DNA of 64,000 nt from NCBI GenBank assembly GCA_017523925.1, contig JAFWVQ010000020.1, forward strand, positions 12,062 through 76,061, given 5' to 3'. The notes beneath the pieces were generated by a model. The model searched no databases. It had not been told where the DNA came from and saw only the letters and a list, made by a program, of their open reading frames with translations. The stretch is from Clostridia bacterium (GTDB lineage Bacteria > Bacillota > Clostridia > Christensenellales > CAG-138). This document shows positions 1 to 18,448 of this stretch, piece by piece. The number at the start of each line of letters is the position of its first letter. Positions within the stretch are counted from its first letter, which is position 1. A program made the translations under genes and the position numbers.

Positions 1-152
1 TATTCCTCGTCGTCCGGCATGCTCGGATTCCTGCCCCATGTGTCCTTGCTCGTTCTTAGAAGCAGGGCTCTGTAAATAAAGAAGGAAACGAACATCGTGG
101 ACAGCACGCCGAAGGCGAGAAGCCCGATTATTATCCATAGTATGAGCGGCAT
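1..152 (-). CDS. N-terminal part of a membrane-anchored protein, probably another alpha/beta-hydrolase of the lipid operon (runs off the window)
   Basis: RBS GAAGGAGG then ATG at 152, 10 nt after the fakA stop. Reads MPLILWIIIGLLAFGVLSTMFVSFFIYRALLLRTSKDTWGRNPSMPDDEE. The hydrophobic N-anchor resembles those of the two hydrolases in the operon. Not in the ORF track; function is inferred. Confidence 0.6.
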   Translation of the reverse strand, partial: MPLILWIIIGLLAFGVLSTMFVSFFIYRALLLRTSKDTWGRNPSMPDDEE

Positions 153-162
153 ATTACCTCCT

Positions 163-1893
163 TCAGCAGATGCCGGCGATCCAGTCGTAAAGAGCCTGGC
201 CGCCGTATTCAAAGGTCACTTCAAGCATAGGGTATTCGCCGGCAATGCGCTCGCTTATCACGGTTTCAAGCGAAGCGTCCGCATTCGCACCGCGCAGCAG
301 GATGCAGGTCTCCTTATCGTGGATATCCTCGATATGCTGCATTCCCTCGACAAGCGCGTCCACAGGATCGGATGAGGTGCAGAGCAGCTCGTCGTTCGAG
401 ACCGCGATGTATTCGTTCTCCCTGCAGCTTTTCCCGTTATGGCTGTAATCCTTTGCGGCCCTTGTTACGAGCAGCGTCTCAACGCTGTCCATCCCAAGCC
501 GCATCTGGCGTATGCGCATTTCAACGTCATCGCTGTCCGAAACGTCCATAGCAAGCGCGAAATAGCCCTGCGGAACAGTCATCGTCGGAAGTATCTCGAC
601 GTTTTTCTTGCCCGAAAGCTCAACGGCCTGCTGCGCGGCGAGCATCATATTCGGTCCGTTCGGAAGTATCACGATGCGGTCGGCACCGATGCGCTTTATC
701 GCTTCAAGGAATTCCTCCGAGGAAGTGTTCATCGTGGCTCCGCCGTCGATCACAAGCTCGCAGCCGAGACTTCGGAATATCCGCGCACAGCCCTCGCCGT
801 TCACAACAGCCACTATGCCAAGCGGTTTATGCGCTGCGGCACCAGAAGCCGAAGGGGAAGGGGAAGGGGTAGTGGAAATTGCGGCAGCGGGAGCTGCATC
901 CGCTTTCGAGCTTCCGGTAAACTCGTTGTGCTGAAGCTGCATGTTTTCGAGCTTAAAGGTGAGGAACTCGCCGAACTGCTGAACGTATTCGATGATCGGC
1001 GCGGGCTTTTTCGTGTGAACATGTACCTTAACGCGCATGCCGTCGCGCACCACTACGAGCGAATCCCCGTACATCTCAAGCATGCTCAGAAGGCGGCTTT
1101 GATCAAAGGCGTTGGAATAGCCGTCCGTCCGCATGAGCTGAAGGATGAACTCCATGCAGTAGCCCTCGTTAAAGACGCTGTTCTCGGTGAATTTCGAAAA
1201 ATCGGGCATTGCGGGAGCAGCGTCCGAATGGGCCACATATGCATCGACAGACGAAGCGTCCGCTTGCATTTCCGGGAGCGCTTCGCCGCTCAAAGCGCGC
1301 AGCATGCCCGAAACTATAGCGATATAGCCCTGTGCGCCGCTGTCCACAACGTTCATCTCGGCAAGTATCGGCAAAAGATTCGGCGTGTTGCCGAGGCTTA
1401 TCTCCATAGCCGCAAGATAGACCGTCAGAAGTGTCTCCGCGTCGCGAAGCCGCTTCTGCTCGCGTATAACGAATTCTATACCCTCGCGGGCAACGGTCAG
1501 TATCGTGCCTTCAACGGGGTTTATGACAGATTCGTATGCCACCTTATAGCCGCGTATGAATGCGTTTCGAAGCATAACGGGGGAGGCAGTCTCGCTTCTT
1601 GAAAGCTCAAGATAGATGCCCTTGAAGATCTGCGAGAGGATAACGCCCGAGTTTCCTCGTGCGCCAAGAAGCATGCCGCCGCTGAGCGCTTTAAGATATT
1701 CGTTTAGCGCATCGCAGGTCACGGCACATCGTATCCCGCCCTCGAGCGTCATTCGCATATTCGTTCCGGTGTCGCCGTCGGCAACGGGAAAAACGTTCAG
1801 CGAGTTGATGCGCTGTTCGTTTCTTTTCAGCTCGCTCAGCCCGGAGCGTATCATTTTTTCAAAAAGTTTTCCGTCGATTCTCTTTGTGCTCAT
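163..1893 (-). CDS. fakA: DAK2-domain fatty acid kinase catalytic subunit (FakA/YloV family)
   Basis: LNVFPVADGDTGTNM, GARGNSGVILSQ, EGTILTV, VVDSGAQG, GYCMEF and KVHVHT motifs. Confidence 0.9.
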   Translation of the reverse strand: MSTKRIDGKLFEKMIRSGLSELKRNEQRINSLNVFPVADGDTGTNMRMTLEGGIRCAVTCDALNEYLKALSGGMLLGARGNSGVILSQIFKGIYLELSRSETASPVMLRNAFIRGYKVAYESVINPVEGTILTVAREGIEFVIREQKRLRDAETLLTVYLAAMEISLGNTPNLLPILAEMNVVDSGAQGYIAIVSGMLRALSGEALPEMQADASSVDAYVAHSDAAPAMPDFSKFTENSVFNEGYCMEFILQLMRTDGYSNAFDQSRLLSMLEMYGDSLVVVRDGMRVKVHVHTKKPAPIIEYVQQFGEFLTFKLENMQLQHNEFTGSSKADAAPAAAISTTPSPSPSASGAAAHKPLGIVAVVNGEGCARIFRSLGCELVIDGGATMNTSSEEFLEAIKRIGADRIVILPNGPNMMLAAQQAVELSGKKNVEILPTMTVPQGYFALAMDVSDSDDVEMRIRQMRLGMDSVETLLVTRAAKDYSHNGKSCRENEYIAVSNDELLCTSSDPVDALVEGMQHIEDIHDKETCILLRGANADASLETVISERIAGEYPMLEVTFEYGGQALYDWIAGIC

Positions 1894-1900
1894 CTTTCGA

Positions 1901-3235
1901 TCACTTGGTCTTCCTGCCCATGTTGATAAGCGATTTCGGCAGAATGAAGGTCAGCGCAAACGCGACCGCGGTCCCTATGGCGCAGATAAGAGTCGTGTAC
2001 GACACCGCCTCAACGCCTGCCTTCTTGAGCGCGGTAAGCACTACGCCTGTTGCAATGCCGCTCGCAACGCCCGCGAAAAGGCCCTGCACGGCAAAATACA
2101 TAGCGGAGTTTGCAACGCCGGATCTCTCCTCTTCCTCGGCAGCAAGCTGCGAGGGGATCGAGTATGCAACAGCAAAGAGCGAGCCGATCGCAAGAGAACT
2201 GATGAGGCCGGTTATAATTGCAAGCACCGTCTTCGCAGAGCCGTCGGCAAGCTTGCCGACGATGAACATCGCCGCCATGCCGAGCGTGTAGGTGATCAGC
2301 GTATAGCGGAAGGCGAAGCCGAAGCCATATCTGCGGATGAATTTATTGTACAGTATCAACGCAAACGGCACCGGCGCAAATGCGGCGATCATTACCAGCA
2401 TCATATTCATACCGACAGCGGCGAAGTATTCGTTGATGCCGCCGAGAAAGAGCTGAACGCCGAAGGTCATAAAAGCGTAAACGATCATCCAAAGGATGAA
2501 GGTGCGGTTCTTTGCGGTGTGCCGGAGGGACTCAAACAGCCCAACGGAGCGCTTCGCGTTGCTTTTATTCCTATCGGATTCAAGTGAGGATTCTTCCTTG
2601 ATCATGAATAGGGGGATCAGCATCGTTGCAACGAGCGGAAGCACGATAAGCGCAACAAGCCGGATATTCATATTGTTGAGCATCATTCGGACCACAACGT
2701 AGCCGAGGATGAAGTAAACGATATCGAAGAATGACTTGGTGTTCGATATCAGGCTGCGTTCCTGCTCGGTCTCAACGATCTCGGTATAGGTGGCGTAGTA
2801 GCTGACCATCGTGAGCGTGTAGAAGCTGTAAAAAATGCAGAGCAGAACGCCGTAATAGATCGTGTTCAGAAGCGTTGCGCCTCCGGGGTTCGGAACGACC
2901 AAAAACAGCAGGTATGCGATTATCATCGGAACGAGACCGATCACTATCGACGGTCTGCGCCGTCCCCATCTTGTTTTGAGCTGATCGGTGAAGGAAGCCA
3001 TCGGCACGTCGATTATGCCGTCGAGTATCCTTGCAACAAGGGAAAACACCGCCCACACGCCGGCGATAACCAGGTCCTTTCCAACGTAGGTCTGAAAAGG
3101 CAGCACCTTCTCGACAAAGCCGCTCGCAATAAGCGCGCTGCAAAGATAGGAGCCCATCATCAGATTAAGCATGTTGACGCCCATGCCCGAAAAGGCATAG
3201 AGCATCAGCTTCGGCTTTCCGCTGATCTTTTGCAT
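1901..3235 (-). CDS. MFS transporter, GPH/MelB (MFS_2) family
   Basis: About 12 hydrophobic segments; ILDGIIDVPMASFTDQLKTRWGRRRP signature. Confidence 0.85.
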   Translation of the reverse strand: MQKISGKPKLMLYAFSGMGVNMLNLMMGSYLCSALIASGFVEKVLPFQTYVGKDLVIAGVWAVFSLVARILDGIIDVPMASFTDQLKTRWGRRRPSIVIGLVPMIIAYLLFLVVPNPGGATLLNTIYYGVLLCIFYSFYTLTMVSYYATYTEIVETEQERSLISNTKSFFDIVYFILGYVVVRMMLNNMNIRLVALIVLPLVATMLIPLFMIKEESSLESDRNKSNAKRSVGLFESLRHTAKNRTFILWMIVYAFMTFGVQLFLGGINEYFAAVGMNMMLVMIAAFAPVPFALILYNKFIRRYGFGFAFRYTLITYTLGMAAMFIVGKLADGSAKTVLAIITGLISSLAIGSLFAVAYSIPSQLAAEEEERSGVANSAMYFAVQGLFAGVASGIATGVVLTALKKAGVEAVSYTTLICAIGTAVAFALTFILPKSLINMGRKTK

Positions 3236-3238
3236 CGC

Positions 3239-4180
3239 TTACTTCCCTCCGTTGGTAAACCTATCGATAATCGCCCTTTCCTCGGAAAGATCGGCGCTGA
3301 TCGGTTTGCCCATATAGTACGCCGCCATAAGGCCGGGACCTATATTGATGCCGCACATCGGAAAAACGTCGTTGATGATAACAGCCTTGGGGCGGATCTC
3401 TTCCTCGATCAGCTTCTTATACGCCTCAGCCTGCGCAAGTCTGCTTGTTTGCGCGATAAAAATGAGCTGATCCTCGGGGTTTTCGATGGTGTTCTTGATA
3501 TAGTCGATCAGCATGGCATAGGCGCTCTTCGCTCCCTTGGCCTTGCCTATAACGGTAGTCAGGCCGTTGTAGTCGAACTCACCGATCGGTTTAACTCCGG
3601 CAAGCGTGCCGAAGAAAGCCTTTGCATGCGTGATGCGGCCCTGCTTGGCAACGAAGGAAAGGTCGTCCAGCCAGCCGGCCTGATGGAAGCGGTTGCGGTT
3701 CTGTTCGATAAAATCGGCAACCTCGTCAAAGCTCTTGCCCTCGGCGCGAAGCATGGAAGCGTGTACCATAATGAGGCCGTGGCCTGGGCCGAAGCGCATG
3801 GAGTCGATGACCCTGATATTGCAGTTTGGGTACTCCTCCACGATCTCCTTGCGCGCGGACAAGGCAAAGTTATACGTGCCGCTCATGCCGCCGGAGATGG
3901 TGACGATAATTATGTCGACGCCGTCTTTTGCATACTTTTCAAACGCATCGTGAAACTCCGCTACGTTCGGCGGTGCGGTTTTGTATCCGGTGGGATCCGC
4001 CTTGAGCTTCGCATAGAATTCCTCCCTCGAGAACTCCTCCCATTTATGGAATGAGGAGAGGCTCCGCCCGTCCGGAAGGCTGATGTGGGACGGCACCACA
4101 ACGATGTCATACTGCTTTTGAAGCTCCTCGCTCAGATCGCAGGTAGCGTCGGCCATGATCACAAAGCTTTTGTTTTCCAT
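3239..4180 (-). CDS. DegV/FakB family fatty-acid-binding protein
   Basis: IMADATCDL, KTAPP, TISGGMSGTY, VIDS, LAKQGRI-like, VKPI and C-terminal INIGPG motifs. Confidence 0.9.
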   Translation of the reverse strand: MENKSFVIMADATCDLSEELQKQYDIVVVPSHISLPDGRSLSSFHKWEEFSREEFYAKLKADPTGYKTAPPNVAEFHDAFEKYAKDGVDIIIVTISGGMSGTYNFALSARKEIVEEYPNCNIRVIDSMRFGPGHGLIMVHASMLRAEGKSFDEVADFIEQNRNRFHQAGWLDDLSFVAKQGRITHAKAFFGTLAGVKPIGEFDYNGLTTVIGKAKGAKSAYAMLIDYIKNTIENPEDQLIFIAQTSRLAQAEAYKKLIEEEIRPKAVIINDVFPMCGINIGPGLMAAYYMGKPISADLSEERAIIDRFTNGGK

Positions 4181-4198
4181 TTTTAACCCTCCAAATAT

Positions 4199-5122
4199 TT
4201 AAGTGTTGATATGTTTTTCAAGAAAGTCAAAGACTCTTTCGCGCTCCTCGTCGCTCGCTTGCGCAAGAGTGAGCGCATGCGGCGCACCCGATATCATCAT
4301 CAGTTCGGACTCGGAGCCGCATTTGCTTCGGCAATCCTCTATGAGACGGACAGGCGACTTCGCGTCTGCACTGCCCCCGATGAAGAGTGCGGGGAGGTGA
4401 GTGTTTTTAAGCGACTCGCGCATATCGCTTCGGATGTTGAGCCCGATGAAGATCCGCGCGAACAGTCCGATGAGGAGTATGACAGGCAGCAGCGTCAACC
4501 GTATCGCCTTGCCGTTTCCGGTCATCTGGCAGTAAGGGCTCGCGATACAGCAATCGAGCACCATCGCTCGAATGCTCTGCGTTTTGATCTTGTCCGACGC
4601 AAAGCCGATCGCGGCAGCGCCCATGGATACGCCGTACAGCACTATCCTTCCCGCCGGCACGCGATGCTCGGTCCACTCGATCCATTTCAGCAGATCGTAC
4701 TGCTCTTTTGAGCCAAGGAAGGTGAAGCGCCCCTCGCTCTTGTTGTGCGCGCGCTGATGAACAAGAAGAAGATTGTATCCGCGTTTCAAAAGTGCGCTTC
4801 CGATCAAAGCGCAGTTGTTCATCGGCGTGGAGCAATACCCGTGCATCAGTATTGCGGTCCTGTTATACCCGCGAAAATAGAACTCCGCCTTGAGAACGGC
4901 GCCGTCCGACTCCGTCTCCACCTCCTCATGCGGTTCGCCGCGCATTGCGGAAATTGCCGAAAGCAGCTCGCTGCGGTAGGGGAGATAGGTGCTCCAATTG
5001 AAATCGGGAGGCACTTGGTCGAAATCGGCGATGCGTTTTCTGCTGAACAGCGTGATCGTCAGCACTGCCGCAGGAAGGATCAGAAAGAGCAGCACAGCGC
5101 CGGCTGCGATGAGTATCGGCAT
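4199..5122 (-). CDS. Membrane-anchored alpha/beta-hydrolase (Hydrolase_4/lysophospholipase-like)
   Basis: Start refined to ATG 5122 after GAGAGGGGG; N-terminal TM; LMHGY, GVSMG nucleophile, GGSAD acid, GAPH histidine. Confidence 0.85.
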   Translation of the reverse strand: MPILIAAGAVLLFLILPAAVLTITLFSRKRIADFDQVPPDFNWSTYLPYRSELLSAISAMRGEPHEEVETESDGAVLKAEFYFRGYNRTAILMHGYCSTPMNNCALIGSALLKRGYNLLLVHQRAHNKSEGRFTFLGSKEQYDLLKWIEWTEHRVPAGRIVLYGVSMGAAAIGFASDKIKTQSIRAMVLDCCIASPYCQMTGNGKAIRLTLLPVILLIGLFARIFIGLNIRSDMRESLKNTHLPALFIGGSADAKSPVRLIEDCRSKCGSESELMMISGAPHALTLAQASDEERERVFDFLEKHINT

Positions 5123-5162
5123 CCAAACACCCCCTCTCGAAACGGCTCCTTCTATCGCAGCA

Positions 5163-5579
5163 TCATTTGGGATGCCTGCTGATGTATTCGTTCCACTGCT
5201 TTTTCGCGTTTTCCTCCTGTTCGCTGCGGTGAACGCCGAACACGCATTCAAACGCGAAATGCTCGCAGTTATTGTGAATAAGATTGTAATTCCCTTCACC
5301 GAACCGTCCGCGAGCGATAGCGGTTGTCTTCTCGGGAGGAATGCGTTTCAGCTTCTCAGTAAGCGAGAGGCGCGCCCGCTCCACGATGCTTCCGCCGGCA
5401 AACTCGTCTATAGTGGTGGAAACTACTCTTACATCGGCGTCGGGCGGCAATGCTTCCCTCGGCGGATAGCCGAACTGTATCACCTCGGCGTCGCTGATAT
5501 AAACACCATAGTGCCATATGCCGCCTATGCGAACGCGGACCATATCCCCTTTATCACATTGTTCGGGCCACCACTTCAA
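5163..5579 (-). CDS. LRAT/PLAAT-family (permuted NlpC/P60) acyltransferase/phospholipase
   Basis: GD...WHYGVY and YNLIHNNCEHFA signature; TTG start overlaps the ACP stop. Confidence 0.85.
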   Translation of the reverse strand: MKWWPEQCDKGDMVRVRIGGIWHYGVYISDAEVIQFGYPPREALPPDADVRVVSTTIDEFAGGSIVERARLSLTEKLKRIPPEKTTAIARGRFGEGNYNLIHNNCEHFAFECVFGVHRSEQEENAKKQWNEYISRHPK

Positions 5580-5827
5580 CGCATTTTCTCCGAAATATAA
5601 TCCACTATGTTTCGAACCGTCGGAAAATCGGACACTCCGACATTGTCGAACCTTATCGAGAACAGCTCCTCTATCGCGATGGCGATATAGAGCATACCGA
5701 TGGAGGAGAGGCCGAGGTCCTGCGCAAGGCGCGTATCCTCGCTCACATCAACACCCTTCTCCATGATCAACGGATCCGCCGAATAGAGGATGTCCTTAAG
5801 CTTTTCGATTATCTCTGTTCTTGTCAT
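5576..5827 (-). CDS. Acyl carrier protein (stand-alone)
   Basis: 83 aa, acidic; DLGLSSIG phosphopantetheine site and IEELFSIRF; TGATG coupling to the upstream ligase. Confidence 0.85.
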   Translation of the reverse strand: MTRTEIIEKLKDILYSADPLIMEKGVDVSEDTRLAQDLGLSSIGMLYIAIAIEELFSIRFDNVGVSDFPTVRNIVDYISEKMR

Positions 5828-7335
5828 CAGCATTTTTTATATCTCAGTATCTTCATGCTCGGGGAGCGTTCAAAATCGGTGTCGCGGATAACGATGCGCG
5901 AAACGCGCTCGGAGGGTATCTGCTCGGCATTCAGCTCCCAAAGCTTTTCCTCCGCAGCCTTCTTCGGTTCATCGCCAAGGGAACCGATCTCTGTCGCTCT
6001 TAAAACCACCTCGAGCGCAAGGAAATGTCTGCCGGCTTCGTCAAAGTCCTCAAACACCTGAGAATCCTGAACGAAGCTGAGTGCATTGAACCGCGCCTCA
6101 AGCTCGGCGGGGGAGACGTTCTCGCCGTTTGAAAGCACGATCACCTCTTTTGTGCGCCCGGTGATATAGAGGAAGCCTTCATCATCGATCCGCGCAAGAT
6201 CGCCGGTATGGAACCAACCGTCGGTCCACGCAGGCTCATCCTCGCCAACGTAGCAGGTGAGCATATTCCTGCCCTTAAGAAGCAGCTCGCCGTCAACAAT
6301 CATAAGCTCCTGATTGGGGAAGGGGAGACCGACGGAATCGGGCTTGCGGAGTGAATCGGGGTTGCCCGAAACGAGGTTTGCGGACTCGGTCAAGCCGTAG
6401 CCGGGGCAGAGCACGATGCCGAGCTTATCATATTCGCTCACAAGATAGGGTGCAACCGCAGCCGCGCCGCAAATGATGTGATGCATAGAGTCGCCGAGCA
6501 TGTTGCGGCCGAGCTTTCTTGAGAGCTGCAGCGCCATTTCGGCAAGCGCGGGAACGGTAACGAGTATTGTCGGGCGGAATACGGCGATATCGCGGAACAT
6601 GTCCTTGTTGTTTTCAACGATGAACAGCGTGCTGCCCGTGTAAAGGGAGGTGAGCAGGTTGCGGATGAGGCCGAAAACGTGCGAGAGCGGGAGCGTCAGA
6701 ATATAGCGCTGAGCGAAAACGCCCTTGTAGCCGTAGCAGCCGTTCATAACGCCCTGCATCACAGCGCCGTGGCTGAGAAGCGCGCCCTTGCTCTTGCCCG
6801 TGGTGCCGCCGGTGAACATGATCATGCAGGGATCATCGCCGGAAACCTCGCAAATGGGAACAAAAGTCTCGGCACTGCTGCTTGTGGTAAGAAATACTGC
6901 GTTTGCCGCCTTTTCCTTGGCAAAGCTTGATTTGCTTTCAAGCGCAGGACTGCTGATAAGCGCCTTTGCGCCGAATTTCATCATGCAGCCGAAAACAGCA
7001 GTTTCATCAAGAAAAGCGGGCAGTATCACGGCGCAGCATCCGGCGGTCACGACCGCGATATACGCCTTAGCAAAATCGTAGGAATTCTCAATAAGAAGCG
7101 CTACCCGATCGCCCTTAACGAGTCCTTTTGCGGCGATGGCCGAGCGAAGTGATGCCGCATCCGAGTCGAGCTCCGAGAAGCTGTGCTTATTGCCTGCGAA
7201 TTCGATCGCGGTGCGCTCGGCATATTCCGCTGCGCAAAATTTCCACATGGCGGCGATGCTGCCGTGGTCGCGGATCGCTTCGTATTCCTCCGCAAGCATA
7301 AACCGTTTGAATTGTTCTGCACTGTTGATTTTCAT
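5827..7335 (-). CDS. Long-chain fatty acyl-CoA/ACP ligase (AMP-binding)
   Basis: Start refined to ATG 7335 after AGGAGG; FTGGTTGKSKG, GYGLTE, FHTGD, GRTKEVIVLSNGENVSP and terminal KILR motifs. Confidence 0.9.
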   Translation of the reverse strand: MKINSAEQFKRFMLAEEYEAIRDHGSIAAMWKFCAAEYAERTAIEFAGNKHSFSELDSDAASLRSAIAAKGLVKGDRVALLIENSYDFAKAYIAVVTAGCCAVILPAFLDETAVFGCMMKFGAKALISSPALESKSSFAKEKAANAVFLTTSSSAETFVPICEVSGDDPCMIMFTGGTTGKSKGALLSHGAVMQGVMNGCYGYKGVFAQRYILTLPLSHVFGLIRNLLTSLYTGSTLFIVENNKDMFRDIAVFRPTILVTVPALAEMALQLSRKLGRNMLGDSMHHIICGAAAVAPYLVSEYDKLGIVLCPGYGLTESANLVSGNPDSLRKPDSVGLPFPNQELMIVDGELLLKGRNMLTCYVGEDEPAWTDGWFHTGDLARIDDEGFLYITGRTKEVIVLSNGENVSPAELEARFNALSFVQDSQVFEDFDEAGRHFLALEVVLRATEIGSLGDEPKKAAEEKLWELNAEQIPSERVSRIVIRDTDFERSPSMKILRYKKC

Positions 7336-7382
7336 TTGGTCCTCCTGTATCATCAAGCGAATGGGATGCAGTTCACCGTCGC

Positions 7383-8027
7383 TCAAAGAGTTTTCAGTTT
7401 TTCTTCCTTATCCTGAAGCAGCTTCGCGGCCTCGCCTATCTGAGCAAGGGTGGGGCGCTCGCCGTACAGAGCGCGAATGTCGACGGGTTCGCCGACGTTT
7501 ATTACGAGCCGATTATAAAAACGCTTCGGTTTTTTGATATACACGGGAACGATCGGGCTTTCGCCCTGCTGTGCAAGCAGGATCATTCCGGATTTGAACG
7601 GTGCAAGAGCTTGCGAGTTTTCGGCATTGACGTGTCCCTCCGGAAACATGCTAACGACCTTGCCCGCTTTCAGAACCTCTGAGACAGCGCGAAGGGAATT
7701 CATGCTGAAATTATCGCGGTCTATCAAGATGCAGTGAAACTGCCTGAAAGCCCACCGAGTGAAGCGATTATGTTCCGCAAGATCCTTGGTGCATACAAAA
7801 TGCTGCCTCCTGAACCAGATCCCCGCGAGCAGGTAAACGGGATCCCAGAAGCTGTTGTGGTTGGCAATAACGAGCGCGCCTCCTCTTTTGAGAGCTTGCT
7901 TCGCCTTATCACTTTCGTAAACGCGCTTCGGTCTGAACCCAAGCATCGCCGGGATGGCCGAGGTCGCGGCGGCAACATCATACCAGAAATAATTTTTTAC
8001 CGGCGCTTTTTCACTGTTTCGGCTCAT
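7383..8027 (-). CDS. PlsC-like lysophospholipid acyltransferase
   Basis: NHNSFWD (HX4D), IDR, FPEG, PFKSG, PIVP motifs. Confidence 0.9.
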   Translation of the reverse strand: MSRNSEKAPVKNYFWYDVAAATSAIPAMLGFRPKRVYESDKAKQALKRGGALVIANHNSFWDPVYLLAGIWFRRQHFVCTKDLAEHNRFTRWAFRQFHCILIDRDNFSMNSLRAVSEVLKAGKVVSMFPEGHVNAENSQALAPFKSGMILLAQQGESPIVPVYIKKPKRFYNRLVINVGEPVDIRALYGERPTLAQIGEAAKLLQDKEEKLKTL

Positions 8028-8643
8028 CTGTAACCTCCCTCAATTCGATTATCTTCGCTCTCATCGCTTCGGTGAGGCGCTCGATATTTTCCTTGTCGGT
8101 ACGGCTGCGGTCGTCAAACAGCGTCGGGTCGATGGGCTTACCTATCACGACCTTTGCACGCTGCTTCGAAAAATACGCTCCGTTTGTATAAACGGGGATC
8201 ACCTTAACGCCGCTTGCAAGCGCAAGATACGCGGCGCCGGGTTTGAATTCGATCGGTGGGGTCTCGCTTTCAAGCGGCAGACGTCCCTCGGGGAAGATCC
8301 CAACAACGCCGCCTTTTTTGAGGATTGACTCGGATTCGCTCATAAACCCGAGATCGGTCGCGTTTCGATTGATATAGATGCCGCCGAGCAGCTTCAAAAA
8401 GGGTCCGAGCAGCTTCTTTTCAAACAACAGCTCGGCCATCTGATAGCGCAGCGTCCTTGTAAAAAACACAAAGAGCATACAGGCATAATCATAAACGGCG
8501 GTATGGTTGCTCACTATTATCGCCGGTCCCTTTATGCGGCGCGACTGCACGGACTTATCCTCGTAATAGTACTTGGTGCGGAACACGATAAGCTGCGCGG
8601 GCCAACCCGTGAGCTTAACAAAAGCATTCATAAACCGTATCAT
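8011..8643 (-). CDS. PlsC-like lysophospholipid acyltransferase (second paralogue)
   Basis: NHTAVYD (HX4D), INR, FPEG, FKPGA, VIPV motifs. Confidence 0.9.
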   Translation of the reverse strand: MIRFMNAFVKLTGWPAQLIVFRTKYYYEDKSVQSRRIKGPAIIVSNHTAVYDYACMLFVFFTRTLRYQMAELLFEKKLLGPFLKLLGGIYINRNATDLGFMSESESILKKGGVVGIFPEGRLPLESETPPIEFKPGAAYLALASGVKVIPVYTNGAYFSKQRAKVVIGKPIDPTLFDDRSRTDKENIERLTEAMRAKIIELREVTDEPKQ

Positions 8644-10655
8644 TGTCTGCCGCCGTTCAGCGTTTCCGTCATAAAAGCCGCGATCTCGGAGGGCGTGCTC
8701 AGGCTGCGCCCGGAGTCCACGGGAAACGCTATATCATAGTCGTGCCGAATCTTTGAAACAACGCCGAAGAAGTCAAGACTGCTTCCGCCGAGATCGAGAA
8801 AAAAGTCCGACTCGGGGGATATCTCGGAAAGCTCCTTGCCGAGCGCGTCTGCAAACAGCTGCATAACGCGGCTCAAAAGCTCGCTTCCCGCGCCTGCGGC
8901 GCTCGATCTTGCCTGCGTGCCTTCATAAGCGGTCAGCTCTCCGCGGTTGATCAGTTCGGCGATCCTTCTGCGATTTAGCTTGAACTCGTTTTCATTCATC
9001 AGCGGTTCGCGAACGATCAATATGCGCGTGATCAGATCCTCAAGCCCGTTTTGAGAAAGGCGCGCTTTAACTTCTTCATATATCCGCCCTGAGCCGTCGG
9101 CGCCTACGAAGGGCTTGAGCGAAAGCACGAGCGTTGGCCGCACGTCACCGCCATCGCCATTACCCTTGAGCGCAACAAGGCAGCATTCGCGCACGCCGTC
9201 CACAAGGAACTTATCCTCGATAAGGCAGGGATTGAGGTTCTCACCGGTGGGGGAGATGACCACGTCGTCGGAGCGGCCGAGGATGTGGTATCGACCGTTT
9301 TTGCACTCGGCAAGATCGCCGGTGTCGTACCAATCGCCGCCGCGTGCGATGATGTTTCCGCCCTCCGTGACCCTTGAAGCCGCCGATCTTGAGCGCACGA
9401 AAAGCCTGCCGTTTTCGATCCTGTATTCGCATGATGCGAACGGCTTGCCTACCGAACCGCTCGAAAGCAGGCTGTATTTCTTCTCGGTTTCAAAAGAAGT
9501 TATGCCGATCTCGGTCATTCCGTAGCCGTTTGCAAGCCTATACCCGATCGCGTTGAAAAAGCCAAGCACTTCGTCGCTTATCTCGCTGCCGCCGCTTATC
9601 ATGAAGCAAATGCTGCTCCCGAACATGCTGCTGCGCACCCTTTTGAATGCGACCTTGGAAAACAGCGGTCCGATGCATGGGATATCCGCTATCTTCCTGT
9701 AAATCGCCATTGCTCTGTTGAAGCGCTTTTTGGTCTTATCGCCAAGCTTATGTATCCCGCTCAAGGCCTCGGAATAAACCTTGTTCCAAAAGAGCGGGAC
9801 CGCAAAAATATGCGTTACCTCGTGTCTGCGGATCGTGTTGAGAACGGTGTCCTTGTCAAGCGAATTGAGAAGAACAAAGCTACGTGAAAAGAACGCGAAC
9901 CAGATATAGACCGAAACAAGGCCGAATATGTGGCTGAACGGAAGAAAAGCGAGCTGCTTGAGCCTGCCCTTATAATGTTTCTTCATCGCGGGGCATTCCC
10001 TGATTATCGAAAGACTGTCGCTGATCATCCAGTAGAAATTCTCGGCGGTGTAGGCGGCGAGCTTTACGTGCTCGCCGGTACCGGAGGACATTATCAGCAC
10101 CTCGTCCGCAAAGCCGTCCGATGGCAGCTCCGAACCGACGCGATCCATAAGCGCTTTGCCTGCAGGGTCTATTTCGTTAAGACCTATCACCTTGAGCGGG
10201 ATGCCGAGATCGAGTTCATCGGTTTCGGCAATGATCAATTCGGCTCCGCATTCAACGGCGGCTCCTGAGAGCGTAGCTTTGTCAAGCCTTTGATTCATCA
10301 AAAAAGGGCGGAAGCCGCAAGCAAGAACGGACCAGAAAACCTCGATCCACTCGCGGCTGTTTCCAAGATAGATCCCAACGGCGGCGCCGCGCGAAATACC
10401 GAAACTTTCAGCGATCGAGCCAAGCAGCGCGCTTCTTTTCAATATGCTTTCGCGGCATTCTCCGTAGGTAGTTTCAACTATGCGGTAACCCTCGCTCTTT
10501 TCGAACATGATGTTTTCCTTCTCGGAAAACATGAAGTCGAAAAGACTGCCGAAGTTCTTTTCGGTGTTTGAAAACCTATTCAGCTTTGAAGCAACGTAAC
10601 CGTCTATATCGCGCAGTGCGCTGTCGGACCTGTTTGCCACAAATGAACTCTCCAT
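8640..10655 (-). CDS. Acyl-adenylate-forming ligase fused to a C-terminal carrier (ACP/PCP) domain
   Basis: MSSGTGEHVK (degenerate A3), LPFSHIFG, GYGMTE, YDTGD, GRSDD...GENLNP; C-terminal DFFLDLGGSSLD carrier motif. Confidence 0.85.
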   Translation of the reverse strand: MESSFVANRSDSALRDIDGYVASKLNRFSNTEKNFGSLFDFMFSEKENIMFEKSEGYRIVETTYGECRESILKRSALLGSIAESFGISRGAAVGIYLGNSREWIEVFWSVLACGFRPFLMNQRLDKATLSGAAVECGAELIIAETDELDLGIPLKVIGLNEIDPAGKALMDRVGSELPSDGFADEVLIMSSGTGEHVKLAAYTAENFYWMISDSLSIIRECPAMKKHYKGRLKQLAFLPFSHIFGLVSVYIWFAFFSRSFVLLNSLDKDTVLNTIRRHEVTHIFAVPLFWNKVYSEALSGIHKLGDKTKKRFNRAMAIYRKIADIPCIGPLFSKVAFKRVRSSMFGSSICFMISGGSEISDEVLGFFNAIGYRLANGYGMTEIGITSFETEKKYSLLSSGSVGKPFASCEYRIENGRLFVRSRSAASRVTEGGNIIARGGDWYDTGDLAECKNGRYHILGRSDDVVISPTGENLNPCLIEDKFLVDGVRECCLVALKGNGDGGDVRPTLVLSLKPFVGADGSGRIYEEVKARLSQNGLEDLITRILIVREPLMNENEFKLNRRRIAELINRGELTAYEGTQARSSAAGAGSELLSRVMQLFADALGKELSEISPESDFFLDLGGSSLDFFGVVSKIRHDYDIAFPVDSGRSLSTPSEIAAFMTETLNGGRQ

Positions 10656-10681
10656 TCAGCTTAATGATATGCCGCGCGGGA

Positions 10682-11656
10682 TCATTCGCCCGAAAACAGC
10701 GGCTGTAAAAATCTATCAACAGCTTCCATCAGCGGAGTATTGAGCGCCCCCTCCTCGGTAAAAAGAATGGAGCCGTGCCCTGCGTGCTCGCTGTTTTCCT
10801 CCAAGTAGAAGCTGATGCCCGAGGATATCTCAGAGCCTTCAAGCGTCTCATAGAGGCTTATCTCCAATGGTATTGTGTCGTCGTTCGCGCCATGCACGAT
10901 AAACGATGGTATCGACGACTTTTGTATGCTGCGCGCGGCAGAGGAGTTGGCCTCCAAACCGAGCGAAGCATATTCGTGCGCGATCAGGAAGGGGGCGTGG
11001 ATATCTCCGAAAATAGAAGCATAGTTATGCGCCCAGAAGCGCATGGTGTCGACCGGCTTATCAAAAGCGGATACGCAGATCACCGCATCAGCGCCGGAGC
11101 GGTCGCCCTCGACTGCCGAAGCATAAGCACCCGCGCTGTGTCCGAAGAGGATGAGCGGGATACCGTTTGAAAGACCGTTTGCCTTAACGAACCCGACCGC
11201 CGCGCGAAGATCGTAGCGCGCCTGCTGAATGCCGATAACGCGCTCGCCGCCGCTTCGGCCGACTGCCGTGCCGTCGAATATCAGCACAGCATAGCCGCGC
11301 TCGGCTAAAAAACGAACCACCGGCTCATAACCGTCCGAGGAGCCGTACATTCCGTGCGCTATAAGCACCAGAGCCTTGGGCTCCGAGCAGGAGATATGAT
11401 AGCCGCACAGCGTGTTTCCGTCGAGCTCAAACTCGATCTCGCTCCATGAAAGCCCTCTGTTTTTCGCCCAACTCTCAAGGGGGAAGGGCTCTGACACGCG
11501 CGGCTTCGAGCGCCCGAACATCACAAGAAAAACGACCTCGGTAGCGATCATGGAAACAGCCACGGCGCCGCCGAGCACGACCGCGGTTCGCTTGATATAC
11601 TTGCGCAGCTTCTGCCTGCGCGGTGATTCCGTAACTCCGCTTTTCTTTTCGTCCAA
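10682..11656 (-). CDS. Membrane-anchored alpha/beta-hydrolase
   Basis: TTG start after AGGAG; N-terminal TM; IAHGM, GHSAG, HGANDDTIP and HAGH motifs. Confidence 0.85.
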   Translation of the reverse strand: MDEKKSGVTESPRRQKLRKYIKRTAVVLGGAVAVSMIATEVVFLVMFGRSKPRVSEPFPLESWAKNRGLSWSEIEFELDGNTLCGYHISCSEPKALVLIAHGMYGSSDGYEPVVRFLAERGYAVLIFDGTAVGRSGGERVIGIQQARYDLRAAVGFVKANGLSNGIPLILFGHSAGAYASAVEGDRSGADAVICVSAFDKPVDTMRFWAHNYASIFGDIHAPFLIAHEYASLGLEANSSAARSIQKSSIPSFIVHGANDDTIPLEISLYETLEGSEISSGISFYLEENSEHAGHGSILFTEEGALNTPLMEAVDRFLQPLFSGE

Positions 11657-11728
11657 TTTCGATAACTCCTAAAGGATGAATGCGTCATCCATGGTCGGGC
11701 ATCGCGGCGCATAGAGCGCCACTAATAC

Positions 11729-11757
11729 ATTATAAAGTATTGCCGTCAAACTGTCAA
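11729..11757 (-). promoter_or_regulatory. Consensus sigmaA promoter of the lipid operon
   Basis: Minus strand TTGACA-gtttgacggcaatactt (17 nt)-TATAAT; overlapped by an imperfect inverted repeat gtcaaactgtc...gacaggttttgac. Confidence 0.8.
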
Positions 11758-11805
11758 CAATTTCGGACAGGTTTTGACATTCAGACGCATCCAATACCAA
11801 GCTTG

Positions 11806-11842
11806 AAGGCGGGAGAGAGCATAGACCGGATCGTCCCGCCTT
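11806..11842 (-). terminator. Hairpin after the M20 peptidase gene
   Basis: aaggcggga...tcccgcctt inverted repeat at the stop codon. Confidence 0.45.
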
Positions 11843-12977
11843 ATTCAAAATGCCCGCCGATCACAAGACGAAGGCCGACCTCGAGCCCGACCTTCAGCGA
11901 AGGGATATCGAGCCACTCCTCCCGAGTATGCGCACCGCCGCCGTTTAACAGCCCGAAGGTCACGGCGGGCACTCCGAGCGAAAGCGGTATGTTTGCGTCG
12001 GTCGACGCCATGTAAAGCTGCGGCGTTTCGCCGGTCACGGCGCATATCGCGTCCGAACAGCGCGAGATCAGAGCGGCAAAGGCCGCTTCATCCACTTCAC
12101 CGCCGCAGGGACGCTCGCCTATCAGCTCCACATCGAACTGCGCCTCGCTGCAATTCGCCTGTGAAAGCAATCTATTTAAGCTTTCGCGCATATATGCGAG
12201 CGATGCGCCATCATTCGAGCGGTATTCATACAGCAGCTCGCAGCTTTGCGCGATCGTGTTCACGCTCGTTCCGCCCGAGATCGTTCCAACGTTATAAGTG
12301 GTTATCGAGCCCTCGCGGTGCGGAAGCACATGCTCGTACAGCCTTGCAACAAGCTTCGCCATATGATGGATGGCGTTTGGATTGCCGAATGCGCCGAACG
12401 AATGTCCGCCGACCGTGCGCGCCGTAACGCGCCAGCGCTCCGAGCCGACAGCTTTAGCGCAGATGCCGCTGCTCAAATTGCAGTCAAACGAAACGACCTG
12501 CTCTATCCTCCCCGAGTGATCCTTCATTATCTGCCGTATCCCTTTAAGGTTTCCAAGCCCCTCCTCACAGGAATTTAGCACGAACATGACGGGCGATCTG
12601 GGTTTGAGCCCCTTTTCGCGTATGTACTCGAGCATCATCAGAATTGCCACAACGTTTGCGGTATCGTCTCCGACGCCCGGCGCATAAAGCCTGCTGCCCT
12701 CCGAACGAACCGGAAGAGGCTCGGTATCGGGAAACACAATATCCGTATGCGCGGTGTAGCAGGTGATGCGATCATCCGCTTCATCGAAGAAGGGTATTAT
12801 AACGTTCTTTGCCTCGTCCACGCGGCACTCAAATCCACGAGCGAGAAGCCATTCGGTTATGAACTCAACGCGCCTGTCCTCATCGCCGGATGGCGCGGGT
12901 ATAAAGGCAAGCGCTTTCAGCAGCTCGAGCTGCTCGTCAAAATGCGATGCGATCCAGTTATTCATATAAGTTTTCAT
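11841..12977 (-). CDS. M20/M25/M40 family metallopeptidase
   Basis: AHTD, GVGDD, CEEGLG, GGHS, GGTSVNTI, STDAN and AHT motifs. Confidence 0.85.
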   Translation of the reverse strand: MKTYMNNWIASHFDEQLELLKALAFIPAPSGDEDRRVEFITEWLLARGFECRVDEAKNVIIPFFDEADDRITCYTAHTDIVFPDTEPLPVRSEGSRLYAPGVGDDTANVVAILMMLEYIREKGLKPRSPVMFVLNSCEEGLGNLKGIRQIMKDHSGRIEQVVSFDCNLSSGICAKAVGSERWRVTARTVGGHSFGAFGNPNAIHHMAKLVARLYEHVLPHREGSITTYNVGTISGGTSVNTIAQSCELLYEYRSNDGASLAYMRESLNRLLSQANCSEAQFDVELIGERPCGGEVDEAAFAALISRCSDAICAVTGETPQLYMASTDANIPLSLGVPAVTFGLLNGGGAHTREEWLDIPSLKVGLEVGLRLVIGGHFE

Positions 12978-13129
12978 GCTCCTTTCAAACTGCATACAAG
13001 CTTTGCTTATGTATTGATTATATCAAATCGCACGAGCTTAAACAACAAGAGATAGCATCATCCGAAAAAGCACCGGCGCGCTTCCGCTGAAACGCACCAA
13101 AGAAAAAACAAAATTTGACAGGATACGCT

Positions 13130-13182
13130 GTTGACTTCGTGTCAGCAAGGTGTTATAATGAGTTTGTTGACACAGAGTCAGC
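13130..13182 (+). promoter_or_regulatory. sigmaA promoter with two GTTGAC-N5-GTCAGC operators upstream of the tetR-family gene
   Basis: TTGACT (13131)-17 nt-TATAAT (13154); palindromes at 13130-13146 and 13166-13182. Confidence 0.7.
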
Positions 13183-13207
13183 ACAAACCCCGCGGAGGAC
13201 AGACTAT

Positions 13208-13819
13208 ATGACCGTAAGAGGATCCGCTCAGATGCGGACGGAGGAAATACTGAACGCCTGCGAGAGACTGTATGCCCGCATGAGCTTCAAGGAGGTTACC
13301 ATCAAGGAGATCGGCGCCGAAACCTCCTTTTCCCGTCCGTCCATCTACAACTATTTCCAGACGAAAGAGGAAATTTTCCTTGCGCTCTTCGAGCGGGAGT
13401 ATCTGTTGTGGGGCGACGATCTCGAAGCCGTGTTAAGTTCGCTTCCCGAGCCGTCGCTGATACCCGCACGGATCGCCGAAACGCTCGATAAGCGCGAGCT
13501 GATGCTCAAGCTCCTTGCCATGAACCTATACGACATGGAGGATAACAGCCGCATTGAGCGCCTCGTTTCCTTCAAACAGGCCTACGGCAGAAGCGTCTCG
13601 ATTTTCGATGCGATAATCAAAGCTGCGTTTCCTGCATTGACAGAGGATGAACGCAGGCGGATGTTGCTTTCCTCGCTCGAATTCATGCACGGAGTGTATC
13701 CTTATGCGCACGCGACCGCAAAACAGCTCGAAGCGATGACCAAAGCAGGCGTTCGGTATGATGCAAAAAGCCTGCACGAGCTTGCGCTCGACGGTCTGCA
13801 AAGAATAATAAAACAATAA
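13208..13819 (+). CDS. TetR/AcrR family transcriptional regulator
   Basis: ATG 13208 after GGAGG; VTIKEIG...SRPSIYNYFQTKEEIF HTH. Confidence 0.9.
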   Translation: MTVRGSAQMRTEEILNACERLYARMSFKEVTIKEIGAETSFSRPSIYNYFQTKEEIFLALFEREYLLWGDDLEAVLSSLPEPSLIPARIAETLDKRELMLKLLAMNLYDMEDNSRIERLVSFKQAYGRSVSIFDAIIKAAFPALTEDERRRMLLSSLEFMHGVYPYAHATAKQLEAMTKAGVRYDAKSLHELALDGLQRIIKQ

Positions 13820-13841
13820 TAATTTATCGGAGGAAATAACC

Positions 13842-15008
13842 ATGCTTGGAAACTTCAGCTACAAGAACGCAACCAAACTCTATTTCGGCGAGGATTCGCT
13901 GAGCTTTTTGAAGGATGAGCTCAATAACTTCGGCAAGAACGTCGTGCTCATCTATGGCGGCGGTTCGATCAAAAAGAACGGCATCTACGACAGCGTTATT
14001 GCCATTTTGAAGGAATGCGGTAAGAATATCGCCGAGGATGCCGGAGTTATGCCCAACCCCACTGCGGAAAAGCTCCGCGAGGGCGTGAAGATCGCGCGCG
14101 AGCATAATGCCGACCTGCTTCTCGCCGTCGGCGGCGGCTCCTGCTGCGACTATGCAAAGGCGGTATCCGTGTCCGTTCACTGCGATGAGGATCCGTGGGA
14201 TAAGTACTTCATCAGGTTCGATGAGCCGACCTGCGAGATAGTACCCGTCGGATGCGTGCTGACTATGGCTGGCACCGGCTCCGAGATGAACGGCGGCTCC
14301 GTCATCACCAACCACGAGACCCATCAGAAGATCGGCCACGTTTTCGGCGACGAGGTAATGCCGAAGTTCTCCATACTCAATCCGCGCTTTACGATGAGCC
14401 TGCCCAAGCGCCAGATGGTCGCCGGTATATACGATATCTTCAATCATATCTGCGAGCAGTATTTTTCTGGCGAGGATGACAACGTGAGCGATTACATTGC
14501 GGAGGGGCTGATGAAATCCGTCATCCGCAACTCCCTTGTGGCGATCGAAGATCCCGAGGATTATGAGGCGCGCTCAAACATCATGTGGGCGGCTACCTGG
14601 GCGCTTAACACGCTTATCGCCTGCGGAAAAGCCACCGATTGGATGGTACATATGCTCGGACAGGCGGCAGGCGGCTACACCGACGCCACTCACGGCATGA
14701 CGCTTTCGGCGGTCTCGCTTCCCTATTACCGCCACATCATGCCCTACGGTTTAGCTAAATTCAAGAGGTTCGCCACCGAGGTTTGGGGTGTTGGTGGAGC
14801 GGGCAAAACCGACAGGCAGATCGCCGAAGAAGGCCTTTCCGCCATGGAAAGCTGGATGAAAACGATCGGCGTTGCGATGAACCTTACCGAGCTTGGCGTA
14901 ACGCCCGATATGATCGAGGCTATCGCGGATGCGACCTTTATCTTCGACGGCGGCTATAAGAAGCTTGAACGCGAAGAAGTTGTTAAAATAATCAAAGAAA
15001 GCCTTTAA
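13842..15008 (+). CDS. Iron-containing alcohol dehydrogenase (BdhA/YqhD-like)
   Basis: YGGGS, AVGGGSCCD, TMAGTGSE, DIFNH, HMLG, HGMTL motifs. Confidence 0.9.
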   Translation: MLGNFSYKNATKLYFGEDSLSFLKDELNNFGKNVVLIYGGGSIKKNGIYDSVIAILKECGKNIAEDAGVMPNPTAEKLREGVKIAREHNADLLLAVGGGSCCDYAKAVSVSVHCDEDPWDKYFIRFDEPTCEIVPVGCVLTMAGTGSEMNGGSVITNHETHQKIGHVFGDEVMPKFSILNPRFTMSLPKRQMVAGIYDIFNHICEQYFSGEDDNVSDYIAEGLMKSVIRNSLVAIEDPEDYEARSNIMWAATWALNTLIACGKATDWMVHMLGQAAGGYTDATHGMTLSAVSLPYYRHIMPYGLAKFKRFATEVWGVGGAGKTDRQIAEEGLSAMESWMKTIGVAMNLTELGVTPDMIEAIADATFIFDGGYKKLEREEVVKIIKESL

Positions 15009-17436: not shown

Positions 17437-17622
17437 TGTTTTTTCCTCCTCGATCATTATCAAGATGATTATACTGCTATCTCATTAACCGTTCAATTGC
17501 AGTTTTTCTCTAACCTTATCTTTTTCACTTATTATTTCAGCAAGAAGCCACGAATGTTCCGCTTTTGAGCGCAAATGTCGCAGTTTCTGTTAAATATTCT
17601 GAGCGAGTATTCTTTTCGCATT

Positions 17623-18445: not shown

Positions 18446-18448
18446 ATC

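Follow-up and report, generated by a model that had tools for sequence, protein, structure and literature searches.

The window analysed in this study (64,000 nucleotides, positions 12062-76061 of contig C1 in the Clostridia bacterium assembly GCA_017523925.1; 2.59 Mb in 67 contigs, 94.8% complete) carries at its left end an operon of 13 genes, all on the minus strand, encoding three alpha/beta-fold hydrolases, two acid ligases, two carriers, two PlsC-type acyltransferases, an LRAT-family enzyme and a fatty acid kinase with its binding protein, among others. Intact, conserved catalytic motifs are found in each of the three candidate acyltransferases, in the two ligases and two carriers, and in every one of the hydrolases. 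The operon is read here as an accessory module for the salvage of exogenous lipids and for reacylation, its hosts being gut and rumen Clostridia most of which do not synthesise fatty acids, a reading to which we give a probability of roughly 0.45.

Two modules would share the work. In the harvest module (hydA, hydB, DegV, an optional MFS_2 transporter, FakA, hydC and a zinc-ribbon protein), HydA, as a surface-exposed serine lipase, together with HydB and the cysteine-nucleophile protein HydC, both tethered at the inner membrane face, would release acyl chains from external or imported lipids, MFS_2, where present, would carry lysolipids across the membrane, and DegV together with FakA would convert free fatty acid to acyl-phosphate. 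In the acylation module (ligACP, plsC1, plsC2, lig2, ACP and LRAT), the two ligases would charge two dedicated carriers with acids, and the two PlsC-type enzymes and the LRAT Cys-His enzyme, the latter docking on the free-standing acyl carrier protein (ACP), would pass acyl groups to lysolipid or other lipid acceptors. A cell unable to tune its own fatty acids would thereby gain control over its acyl composition, and over the placing of each chain, in the manner of a Lands cycle. All the substrates of this scheme are inferred, as are its product, the topology at the membrane and the sense in which LRAT transfers.

A first-pass annotation of the same DNA had proposed release of fatty acids, their activation by parallel routes and the building or remodelling of a lipid. 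That functional reading fits the data and gains some support from the link between LRAT and ACP, the MFSD2A-like transporter and the association with loss of the type II pathway of fatty acid synthesis (FASII); its substrates and product are, again, what we infer. Its description of the system as self-contained was too strong, as the cluster has neither PlsY nor a head-group enzyme.

Gene order and its conservation

Gene content was established by listing open reading frames (ORFs) and scanning them against Pfam and NCBIfam, and the gene list and order of the first-pass annotation were confirmed. About 1.3 kb of the operon extend beyond the left edge of the window, where the remainder of the third hydrolase gene, hydC, and a gene for a zinc-ribbon membrane protein are found. 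The earlier count of twelve or more genes is thus extended to 13, two of which reach or lie past the edge, and the "further anchored protein" at the window edge (3-212) constitutes the N-terminus of the 337-aa alpha/beta hydrolase HydC. The overlaps of start and stop codons (-4, -17, -4, -7 and -4 nt) and the gaps of less than 50 nt (26, 18, 3 and 7 nt) held when recomputed.

A scan with LRAT, taking one genome per species, yielded relatives in 321 species genomes, and the conservation counts refer to the best 80 of these 321 loci. All 80 belong to uncultured gut or rumen Clostridia, except for the complete genome of Ruminococcus sp. JL13D9. Among the 63 uncut loci with enough upstream DNA, 60 showed the order ligACP-plsC1-plsC2-lig2-ACP-LRAT, and the remaining three lacked only lig2. 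The downstream order hydB-DegV-(MFS_2)-FakA-hydC was found in 55 of the 57 uncut loci with enough downstream DNA, MFS_2 being present in 31 of them. The zinc-ribbon family, 32% identical to the copy of the window, occurs in at least 33 further loci; no other recurrent family was found among the flanking genes. PlsC and the AMP-ligase are separate genes in all 80 loci, and the only fusions seen were ligase-carrier, PlsC-PlsC and LRAT with a phosphopantetheinyl transferase (PPTase). Conservation of the gene order in other genomes, a point that the first-pass annotation had singled out for checking, was evident, and its recurrence over dozens of species puts the arrangement far outside what chance would give.

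At closer range, an LRAT probe gave a real match in 12 of the 151 genomes of the family sample (13 with one 29-residue partial match). Eleven of these neighbourhoods were compared. The full set of genes was present in L019-L021, L023 and L024; the same order was seen in L022, where the contig end cuts inside ligACP, and in L026, with hydA shifted to the tail. Reduced cores were found in the other four, consisting of ligACP-plsC-plsC-(lig2)-ACP-LRAT alone, without harvest genes, in L025 and L027, and of the core plus MFS_2 only in L028 and L029. Over a wider range the distribution of the cluster is patchy: the LRAT profile matched 10 of the 301 genomes of the order sample (7 of 42 families) and 4 of 398 genomes of the class sample beyond the order. 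The family and order samples have three LRAT-positive genomes in common.

Housekeeping copies and loss of fatty acid synthesis

The genome holds further copies of several of these functions. A second FakA, 36% identical to that of the cluster, is encoded on contig C51; C65 holds a third PlsC gene, next to cmk, C45 carries plsX and acpP side by side, and plsY is on C19. There are five DegV genes, the cluster copy being 25-32% identical to the other four, and one gene of the PPTase family elsewhere in the genome. Because of these divergent second copies, the cluster is not housekeeping; the first-pass annotation had considered that its fakA, plsC and acp genes might be the only ones in the genome, which is not the case. 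Among the other DegV genes, that at C17:99647-100501 (L036) lies in a 574-aa frame of double the usual length, which may represent a tandem DegV or a fusion.

Could the operon be a chance or merely regulatory juxtaposition of housekeeping lipid genes without any joint function? All its families are indeed common in lipid metabolism. Nevertheless, the order recurs in 60/63 and 55/57 uncut loci of many species, start and stop codons overlap, and separate, divergent housekeeping copies exist, so that the probability left to this explanation is close to nil.

No gene of FASII was found in the whole assembly, where the first-pass annotation had asked about fab genes. The ketoacyl synthase family PF00109 had no match in the assembly, the only FabH-like match in it was a thiolase, and AccA, AccD, FabZ, FabF, FabD and FabK of a genome of the same genus (G085) had no match in this 94.8% complete assembly. 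In G085, AccA, AccD, FabZ, FabF, FabG, FabD and FabK are encoded on one contig. With no FASII genes found, the organism seems reliant on external fatty acids, subject to the roughly 5% of its genome that the assembly lacks. Among the eight other genomes of the genus of the window, G085 is the one that retains a complete acc-fab cluster.

Full-length FabF (match at E < 1e-30) was detected in 40/151 genomes of the family and 106/301 of the order, and in none of the LRAT-positive genomes of either sample (0/12 and 0/10). One of five further genomes with the cluster had FabF, giving 1 of 24 distinct cluster-bearing genomes overall, which is a clear trend. Loss of FASII is common in the group as a whole, with no full FabF in 111/151 family and 195/301 order genomes.

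Ligases and PlsC-type acyltransferases

The ligACP gene (8640-10655) encodes an adenylating acid ligase fused to a carrier domain (AMP-binding and PP-binding). A variant P-loop, SSGT..K, and the serine 626 of the carrier motif GGxS, which is like that of peptidyl carrier proteins (PCPs), are kept in 64 homologues. By profile, its nearest solved relatives are MenE (2.2e-27), 4-chlorobenzoate-CoA ligase, Cfl and FadD13. Against the amino-acid adenylation model TIGR01733 the two ligases of the cluster scored only 33 and 105 bits, with a cut-off of 317, and judging from these profiles ligACP is an acid ligase rather than an amino-acid ligase. The two acyl-carrier routes of the first-pass annotation stand as far as there are two ligases and two carriers, yet ligACP is nearer to aryl/acyl-CoA ligases such as MenE than to fatty-acid ligases. 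The absence of a condensation domain that it had noted holds as well, in that no condensation family was matched in the Pfam scan of the cluster ORFs.

The second ligase, lig2 (5827-7386; AMP-binding, 203 bits), is FadD-like, with canonical P-loop and adenylation motifs and with FadD13 as its nearest solved sequence (2.6e-33). Its stop codon overlaps the start of the ACP gene (median -4 nt in 76 loci), and it is a probable acyl-ACP synthetase. Elsewhere in the genome, a 974-aa open frame at C33:5492-8671 (L039) combines a PP-binding domain with an AMP-ligase-like region 24% identical to lig2; this protein may resemble nonribosomal peptide synthetases (NRPSs) or carboxylic-acid reductases.

Both acyltransferases are divergent members of the AGPAT/PlsC family: plsC1 (8011-8643) and plsC2 (7383-8027) matched PF01553 with 78 and 85 bits, respectively (cut-off 23 bits), and their HX4D and FPEG motifs are kept in 74 and 69 homologues. 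In the subfamily TIGR00530 they remained under the cut-off of 103, with 62 bits for plsC1 and 79 for plsC2; the housekeeping PlsC on C65 (108 bits) was the sole copy above it. Two distant relatives carry plsC1 and plsC2 as a single-frame fusion with two PF01553 domains (L028:12020-13933 and L029:11982-13304), and in both the core is interrupted by the MFS_2 gene, which stands between ligACP and the fused PlsC frame.

The make-up of ligACP raises the question of a cluster resembling those of secondary metabolism, whose product would be a small acylated compound able to diffuse, for instance an aryl-acyl ester, an N-acyl amide or some comparable signal; LRAT would replace a condensation domain and MFS_2 would act as exporter. 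An A-T didomain with a PCP-like GGxS motif, related most closely among solved structures to aryl-acid ligases, would suit such a role, an Sfp-type PPTase belongs to the cluster in many genomes, and papain-like enzymes that work on carrier-bound acyl groups exist, as described for BtrH, an ACP:aminoglycoside acyltransferase (PMC10318531). We nonetheless regard this as very unlikely. Two PlsC-type enzymes, FakA/DegV and three lipase-like proteins are lipid genes that would be unusual in small-molecule clusters, the proposed exporter is missing in 26/57 loci, tailoring enzymes are absent from the cluster, and the order is extremely conserved over many species, with invariable accessory genes.

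The LRAT-family enzyme and its carrier protein

The LRAT/PLAAT-family Cys-His enzyme (5163-5579, 138 aa) was identified by PF04970 with 64.1 bits (cut-off 24.3). All of 80 sequences retain His23, Cys105 and the NCEHF motif, and the sequence aligns to the structures of human PLAAT2/3 with His and Cys at equivalent positions; as third member of the triad, most sequences have Gln. A hydropathy scan of the 138-aa protein gave no transmembrane (TM) helix or hydrophobic anchor, unlike the animal LRAT/PLAAT enzymes. Its relatives are named in databases only as "lecithin retinol acyltransferase family protein" or "hypothetical protein", and a search of the ESM Atlas returned generic LRAT clusters only.

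The LRAT gene always adjoins that of the stand-alone, dedicated ACP (5576-5833; PP-binding); over 79 loci, the median distance between the two is 2 nt. The serine of this ACP, Ser44, is invariant in 80 sequences, and a tblastn comparison of the cluster ACP with housekeeping AcpP gave no match. In 51 of the 80 loci the LRAT frame exceeds 250 aa by a C-terminal extension; all 51 long homologues also match PF04970, and in 31 of them the Sfp-type PPTase family PF01648 was recognised. PF01648 was likewise found in 48 of 103 longer LRAT relatives from a large protein collection, with no other fusion partner and no ACP-LRAT fusion among the 103. The extension is not present in the 138-aa LRAT of the window, whose genus has lost it. 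Frames of 265-299 aa without a PF01648 match were observed in L065, L067, L088, L091-L094, L096, L100, L107-L109, L112, L113, L117 and others; these shorter extensions look like decaying PPTase domains, as do the 280-aa forms and two examples that were aligned. There is an internal deletion in L024 and a changed motif in L023.

Complex prediction supports docking of LRAT on the stand-alone ACP. With each partner given as an 80-row alignment, the model reached an ipSAE of 0.78 (three runs, 0.74-0.80), whereas none of three controls exceeded 0.00; both partners had a pLDDT of 85 or more, and 97% or more of the contacts were common to the runs. The pass mark of the tool was met by 58 of 80 solved complexes and by 2 of 110 mismatched pairs, a calibration only roughly valid for self-made alignments such as those used here. 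In the modelled interface, ACP residues 41-49 around Ser44 face LRAT residues 19-22 and 96-104, next to His23 and Cys105. Gene context and this model point to ACP, instead of phospholipid, as the acyl donor. We know of no solved LRAT-ACP complex, and for that reason the score probably does not reflect a structure already seen by the tool. No description of an LRAT-family enzyme working with an ACP was found in open full texts, supplements and subscription journals apart.

These features lead us to a tentative proposal, which we consider rather less probable than not: the enzyme, docked on its dedicated ACP and often carrying as a fused domain the PPTase that activates this carrier, would be the first family member acting on a carrier-protein thioester, and the third acyltransferase of an undescribed pathway that builds or remodels a multiply, possibly N-, acylated membrane lipid. 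As part of the same proposal, the two PlsC-type enzymes and the cysteine-nucleophile alpha/beta-fold enzyme would help, the acids would be scavenged, and the hosts would be FASII-less gut and rumen anaerobes.

The same pairing could also run in the harvesting direction: LRAT would draw an acyl group from intact, imported phospholipid onto its cysteine and hand it to the holo-ACP thiol, an ATP-free way to acyl-ACP, on which the PlsC-type enzymes would then act. An ACP shuttle would in this way carry acyl chains from lipid to lipid. The placing of ACP Ser44 beside the LRAT active site in the model agrees with this idea, although the docking gives no direction. ACP and LRAT persist in the 3/63 loci without lig2, and in L025 and L027, with no dedicated ligase beside ACP; on the other hand, lig2 stands directly upstream of ACP in 60/63 loci, which would make the route redundant. 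PLAAT/LRAT enzymes and LnsA take the sn-1 chain of phospholipids through a Cys thioester, but the LRAT of the cluster has no membrane anchor and is better suited to soluble acyl-ACP than to a donor in the bilayer, and transfer from oxyester to thioester is uphill. Taken together, we consider this direction unlikely.

Hydrolases, fatty acid kinase and transporter

The topologies of the three hydrolases were derived from a charge-count heuristic (the positive-inside rule). HydA (10682-11656; Hydrolase_4, 66 bits) is a membrane-anchored serine alpha/beta hydrolase whose G-H-S-x-G serine was found in 42/42 homologues. Nine K/R residues precede its single TM helix, and by the positive-inside rule the catalytic domain is probably outside the cell. 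An esterase and monoglyceride lipases are its nearest solved sequences (E 2.6e-8 to 1e-6), a resemblance that was counted in favour of salvage.

HydB (4199-5122) is a second membrane-anchored serine alpha/beta hydrolase, with the G-x-S-M-G serine in 51/51 homologues. Its start was moved from 5299: the long ORF, 4199-5299, would overlap LRAT by 137 nt, whereas the ATG at 5122, preceded by the ribosome-binding site GAGAGGGGG, is the likely start and separates hydB from LRAT by 40 nt. A short N-terminus without charges leads into a TM helix, after which comes SRKR, so placed that the domain is probably on the cytoplasmic face. The third alpha/beta-fold protein, HydC, has the N-terminal part of its gene at 1-212 of the window, from where it runs to C1:11260. 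Its nucleophile elbow carries a cysteine (G-[IV]-C-I-G in 55/55 homologues), its AF2 model (pLDDT 94.7) has the Pyrococcus esterase Pf2001 as nearest fold, and by the positive-inside rule it should sit at the cytoplasmic face. After hydC and outside the window follows the gene of the zinc-ribbon/DUF4190 membrane protein (C1:10831-11220, minus strand; 129 aa, two TM helices).

The DegV/FakB-type fatty-acid-binding protein (3239-4180) scored 205 bits with PF02645 and 213 with TIGR00762 (cut-off 99.7), and with 127 bits fell short of the 350 of the FakB1 equivalog. The second-copy fatty acid kinase of FakA type (163-1893) contains the Dak2, FakA-like_M and FakA-like_C domains and scored 486.9 bits with TIGR03599 (cut-off 396.1); with the S. 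aureus-type equivalog NF038248 it reached 383 bits, short of 975.

Between them lies the MFS_2 (GPH-family) transporter (1901-3235; PF13347, 120 bits), a candidate lysolipid importer or flippase. Used as a single sequence, it had no match among PDB sequences; as a profile it matched only MFSD2A (4.6e-6 to 5.5e-4) and, weakly, SUC1. With its AF2 model (pLDDT 84.6), the top three Foldseek matches were MFSD2A, followed by MelB. Its NCBIfam matches all belong to the GPH family, with no LplT model among them.

Salvage or a specialised lipid

Several observations weigh against salvage and reacylation. Three activation routes and three acyl-transfer enzymes exceed the needs of simple reacylation. Two FabF genes are present in Ruminococcus sp. 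JL13D9, a cultured strain with the cluster, and 99 of the 111 FabF-less genomes of the family do not have the cluster, which is thus not required for fatty-acid auxotrophy. The association of the cluster with FASII loss is only suggestive because related genomes are not independent. The match of ligACP to MenE-type aryl/acyl-CoA ligases covers the C-terminal half only, and the acid it activates may not be a fatty acid. An Aas-like nature of the cluster PlsC copies was considered and rejected, since the housekeeping PlsC scored higher on the Aas/LplT-fusion model (87 vs 68 and 55 bits). For the transporter, MFSD2A leads MelB by little in the fold search (8.6e-10 vs 1.6e-8), and MFS_2 is missing in 26/57 uncut loci. 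Finally, the membrane topologies come solely from the charge-count heuristic, and the score of the LRAT-ACP complex is a confidence of the model, not a measurement.

The surplus of activation and transfer enzymes therefore favours another explanation, the main alternative, in which the genes would serve solely to make a single specialised lipid with several acyl chains, for example an N-acylated or tri-acylated glycerolipid (N-acyl-phosphatidylethanolamine, acyl-phosphatidylglycerol) or a lipo-amino compound. The PlsC pair would add two O-acyl chains, the LRAT cysteine would move a third acyl group from ACP to an amine or hydroxyl, and the harvest genes would supply building blocks only. The two dedicated carriers, divergent from AcpP, fit this explanation along with the three acyl-transfer enzymes and the three activation routes, and so does the modelled docking of LRAT on ACP; the cluster, however, has no head-group or amino-acid-activating enzyme, and neither ligase is like an amino-acid adenylation domain (33 and 105 vs 317 bits with TIGR01733). 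The free-standing core of L025 and L027, the core with only MFS_2 of L028 and L029, and a patchy distribution typical of accessory products (10/301 in the order, 4/398 elsewhere in the class) also agree with it, but the association with FASII loss and the presence of lipase and FakAB genes suggest bulk membrane supply rather than a minor product. N-acyl-phosphatidylethanolamine was reportedly found in the 1970s in a fatty-acid-requiring rumen Butyrivibrio. As for the enzyme family, animal PLAATs are N- and O-transacylases (PMC11989323, PMC12169743), and the LRAT-like staphylococcal LnsA N-acylates lipoproteins (PMC13559823). On balance, a specialised product is conceivable, though we lean against it, and salvage with reacylation is retained as the preferred reading.

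Relation to described systems

The logic of the cluster resembles that of LplT/Aas combined with FakAB, but by its sequences it would belong to neither. In the LplT/Aas system, as outlined in PMC11416262, a protein of the major facilitator superfamily (MFS) moves lysolipid across the membrane and a PlsC-type domain reacylates it from ligase-loaded ACP. An MFS protein, PlsC-type enzymes, ligases and carriers are likewise found in the cluster. There, however, the parts are separate genes and doubled, with no fused PlsC-AMP-ligase protein; the carriers are dedicated ones rather than AcpP; the transporter is of the MFS_2/GPH family, without a match to the LplT family; the PlsC copies are no nearer to Aas models than the housekeeping PlsC; and FakA/DegV, three hydrolases and an LRAT enzyme are added, in hosts that are Gram-positive-type Clostridia.

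FakA/FakB turns external fatty acid into acyl-phosphate, as stated in PMC10146087 and PMC12594616. What the cluster has in common with the FakA/FakB-PlsX-PlsY-PlsC pathway of Firmicutes is a DegV/FakB protein and a FakA complete in its three domains; the copies differ in being divergent (FakA 36%, DegV 25-32%) and in lying in an operon with carrier-dependent enzymes.

To our knowledge, the acyl donors of known PLAAT/LRAT members are phospholipids, not carrier thioesters. The LRAT of the cluster shares with the PLAAT/HRASLS/LRAT enzymes and LnsA a permuted papain-like fold and the His...NCEHF-Cys pair, and differs in having no membrane anchor or signal peptide. It further differs from PLAAT/LRAT in that its gene adjoins that of an ACP, in its frequent fusion to a PPTase, and in that the protein is predicted by modelling to bind ACP. 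PLAAT/LRAT enzymes and LnsA shift acyl chains via a Cys thioester onto amines, hydroxyls or water, and for the N-acylation of lipoproteins LnsA draws on phosphatidylglycerol, of which it uses the sn-1 chain (PMC13559823).

Action of a papain-like enzyme on carrier-bound acyl groups has precedents in antibiotic pathways, not lipid operons. AdmF of andrimid synthesis is one such acyltransferase. BtrH of butirosin synthesis is a Cys-His enzyme that transfers a carrier-bound acyl group to an acceptor (PMC10318531). Both belong to other papain-like families (BtrH_N and transglutaminase-like, respectively).

The sodium-dependent lysophosphatidylcholine symporter MFSD2A is the best profile and fold match of the cluster MFS_2, and both fall in Pfam MFS_2; the identity is only 13-16%, and MelB sugar symporters score nearly as high. 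The NRPS-like fatty acid amide clusters of gut Clostridia use an adenylating enzyme and a carrier to acylate an acceptor. In contrast, the present cluster shows no condensation domain in Pfam scans and no amino-acid adenylation, and has PlsC, FakA/DegV and lipase genes instead.

No description of this gene cluster was found in open full texts (supplements and subscription journals apart), in line with the first-pass annotation, which knew of no described pathway with this gene set. The main text of a 2026 survey of gut lipid genes makes no mention of LRAT, PLAAT or lysophospholipid. The chemistry between LRAT and ACP has a real chance of being new. If true, the pairing would represent a new type of acyltransferase and would tie an animal retinoid and N-acyl-lipid enzyme family to bacterial carrier-protein chemistry. 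How gut and rumen Clostridia without FASII control their membrane composition from dietary or host lipids is poorly understood; the operon is a compact and widely conserved candidate for that control, and occurs in at least one cultured strain. Its product lipid could bear on host-microbe signalling and on rumen lipid turnover.

Promoter, operon ends and flanking genes

The operon is preceded, upstream of hydA, by a sigma-70-type promoter (11729-11757, minus strand; TTGACA-17-TATAAT) that agrees with the consensus at 12/12 positions, as the first-pass annotation had recognised in calling it a perfect sigmaA promoter. It lies within a 184-nt gap downstream of an M20 peptidase gene. Of the sequencing data sets listed as containing the locus, 12 were of DNA and none of RNA. 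An 18-bp near-palindrome (11724-11741) overlaps the -10 box and is a candidate operator, a weak lead. It has one match in the window, where 0.02 were expected, and its half-site pattern occurs six times in the genome. One copy is located just 5' of the housekeeping plsC, behind a promoter-like site (positions listed: C65:6896 and C51:3478), and another genomic copy has no adjoining lipid gene. In relatives, the stretch upstream of the cluster gave no match in 126 of 128 loci. The near-palindrome could be the operator of a regulator shared by lipid genes.

At the other end, a terminator-like hairpin (C1:10751-10726) follows the zinc-ribbon gene, the thirteenth of the operon, and convergent hydrogenase genes lie downstream of it. 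A 114-aa ORF past the terminator was rejected as an operon member, as it has no family and no relatives in related loci. Further along, on the strand opposite to the operon, the region C1:1-10200 holds an AdhE-type aldehyde/alcohol dehydrogenase, a kinase-like gene, a SpoIIE-type phosphatase and two [FeFe]-hydrogenase-like genes, one with a PAS domain, a set that resembles a sensory hydrogenase.

On the upstream side, window positions 11841-15008 are occupied by an M20/DapE-ArgE-type deacylase (minus strand), a divergent TetR regulator and an Fe-alcohol dehydrogenase, none of which is conserved beside the cluster elsewhere. These three genes were rejected as cluster members, with no M20 match in 91 related loci. 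A scan of window positions 1-13500 against Rfam matched no family. A second strong promoter-like site, at 13131-13159, agrees with the consensus at 11/12 positions and has a TG extension. Lastly, the G+C content of positions 17001-19000 is about 0.44, as compared with about 0.54 around them, and this segment may be foreign or non-coding DNA.

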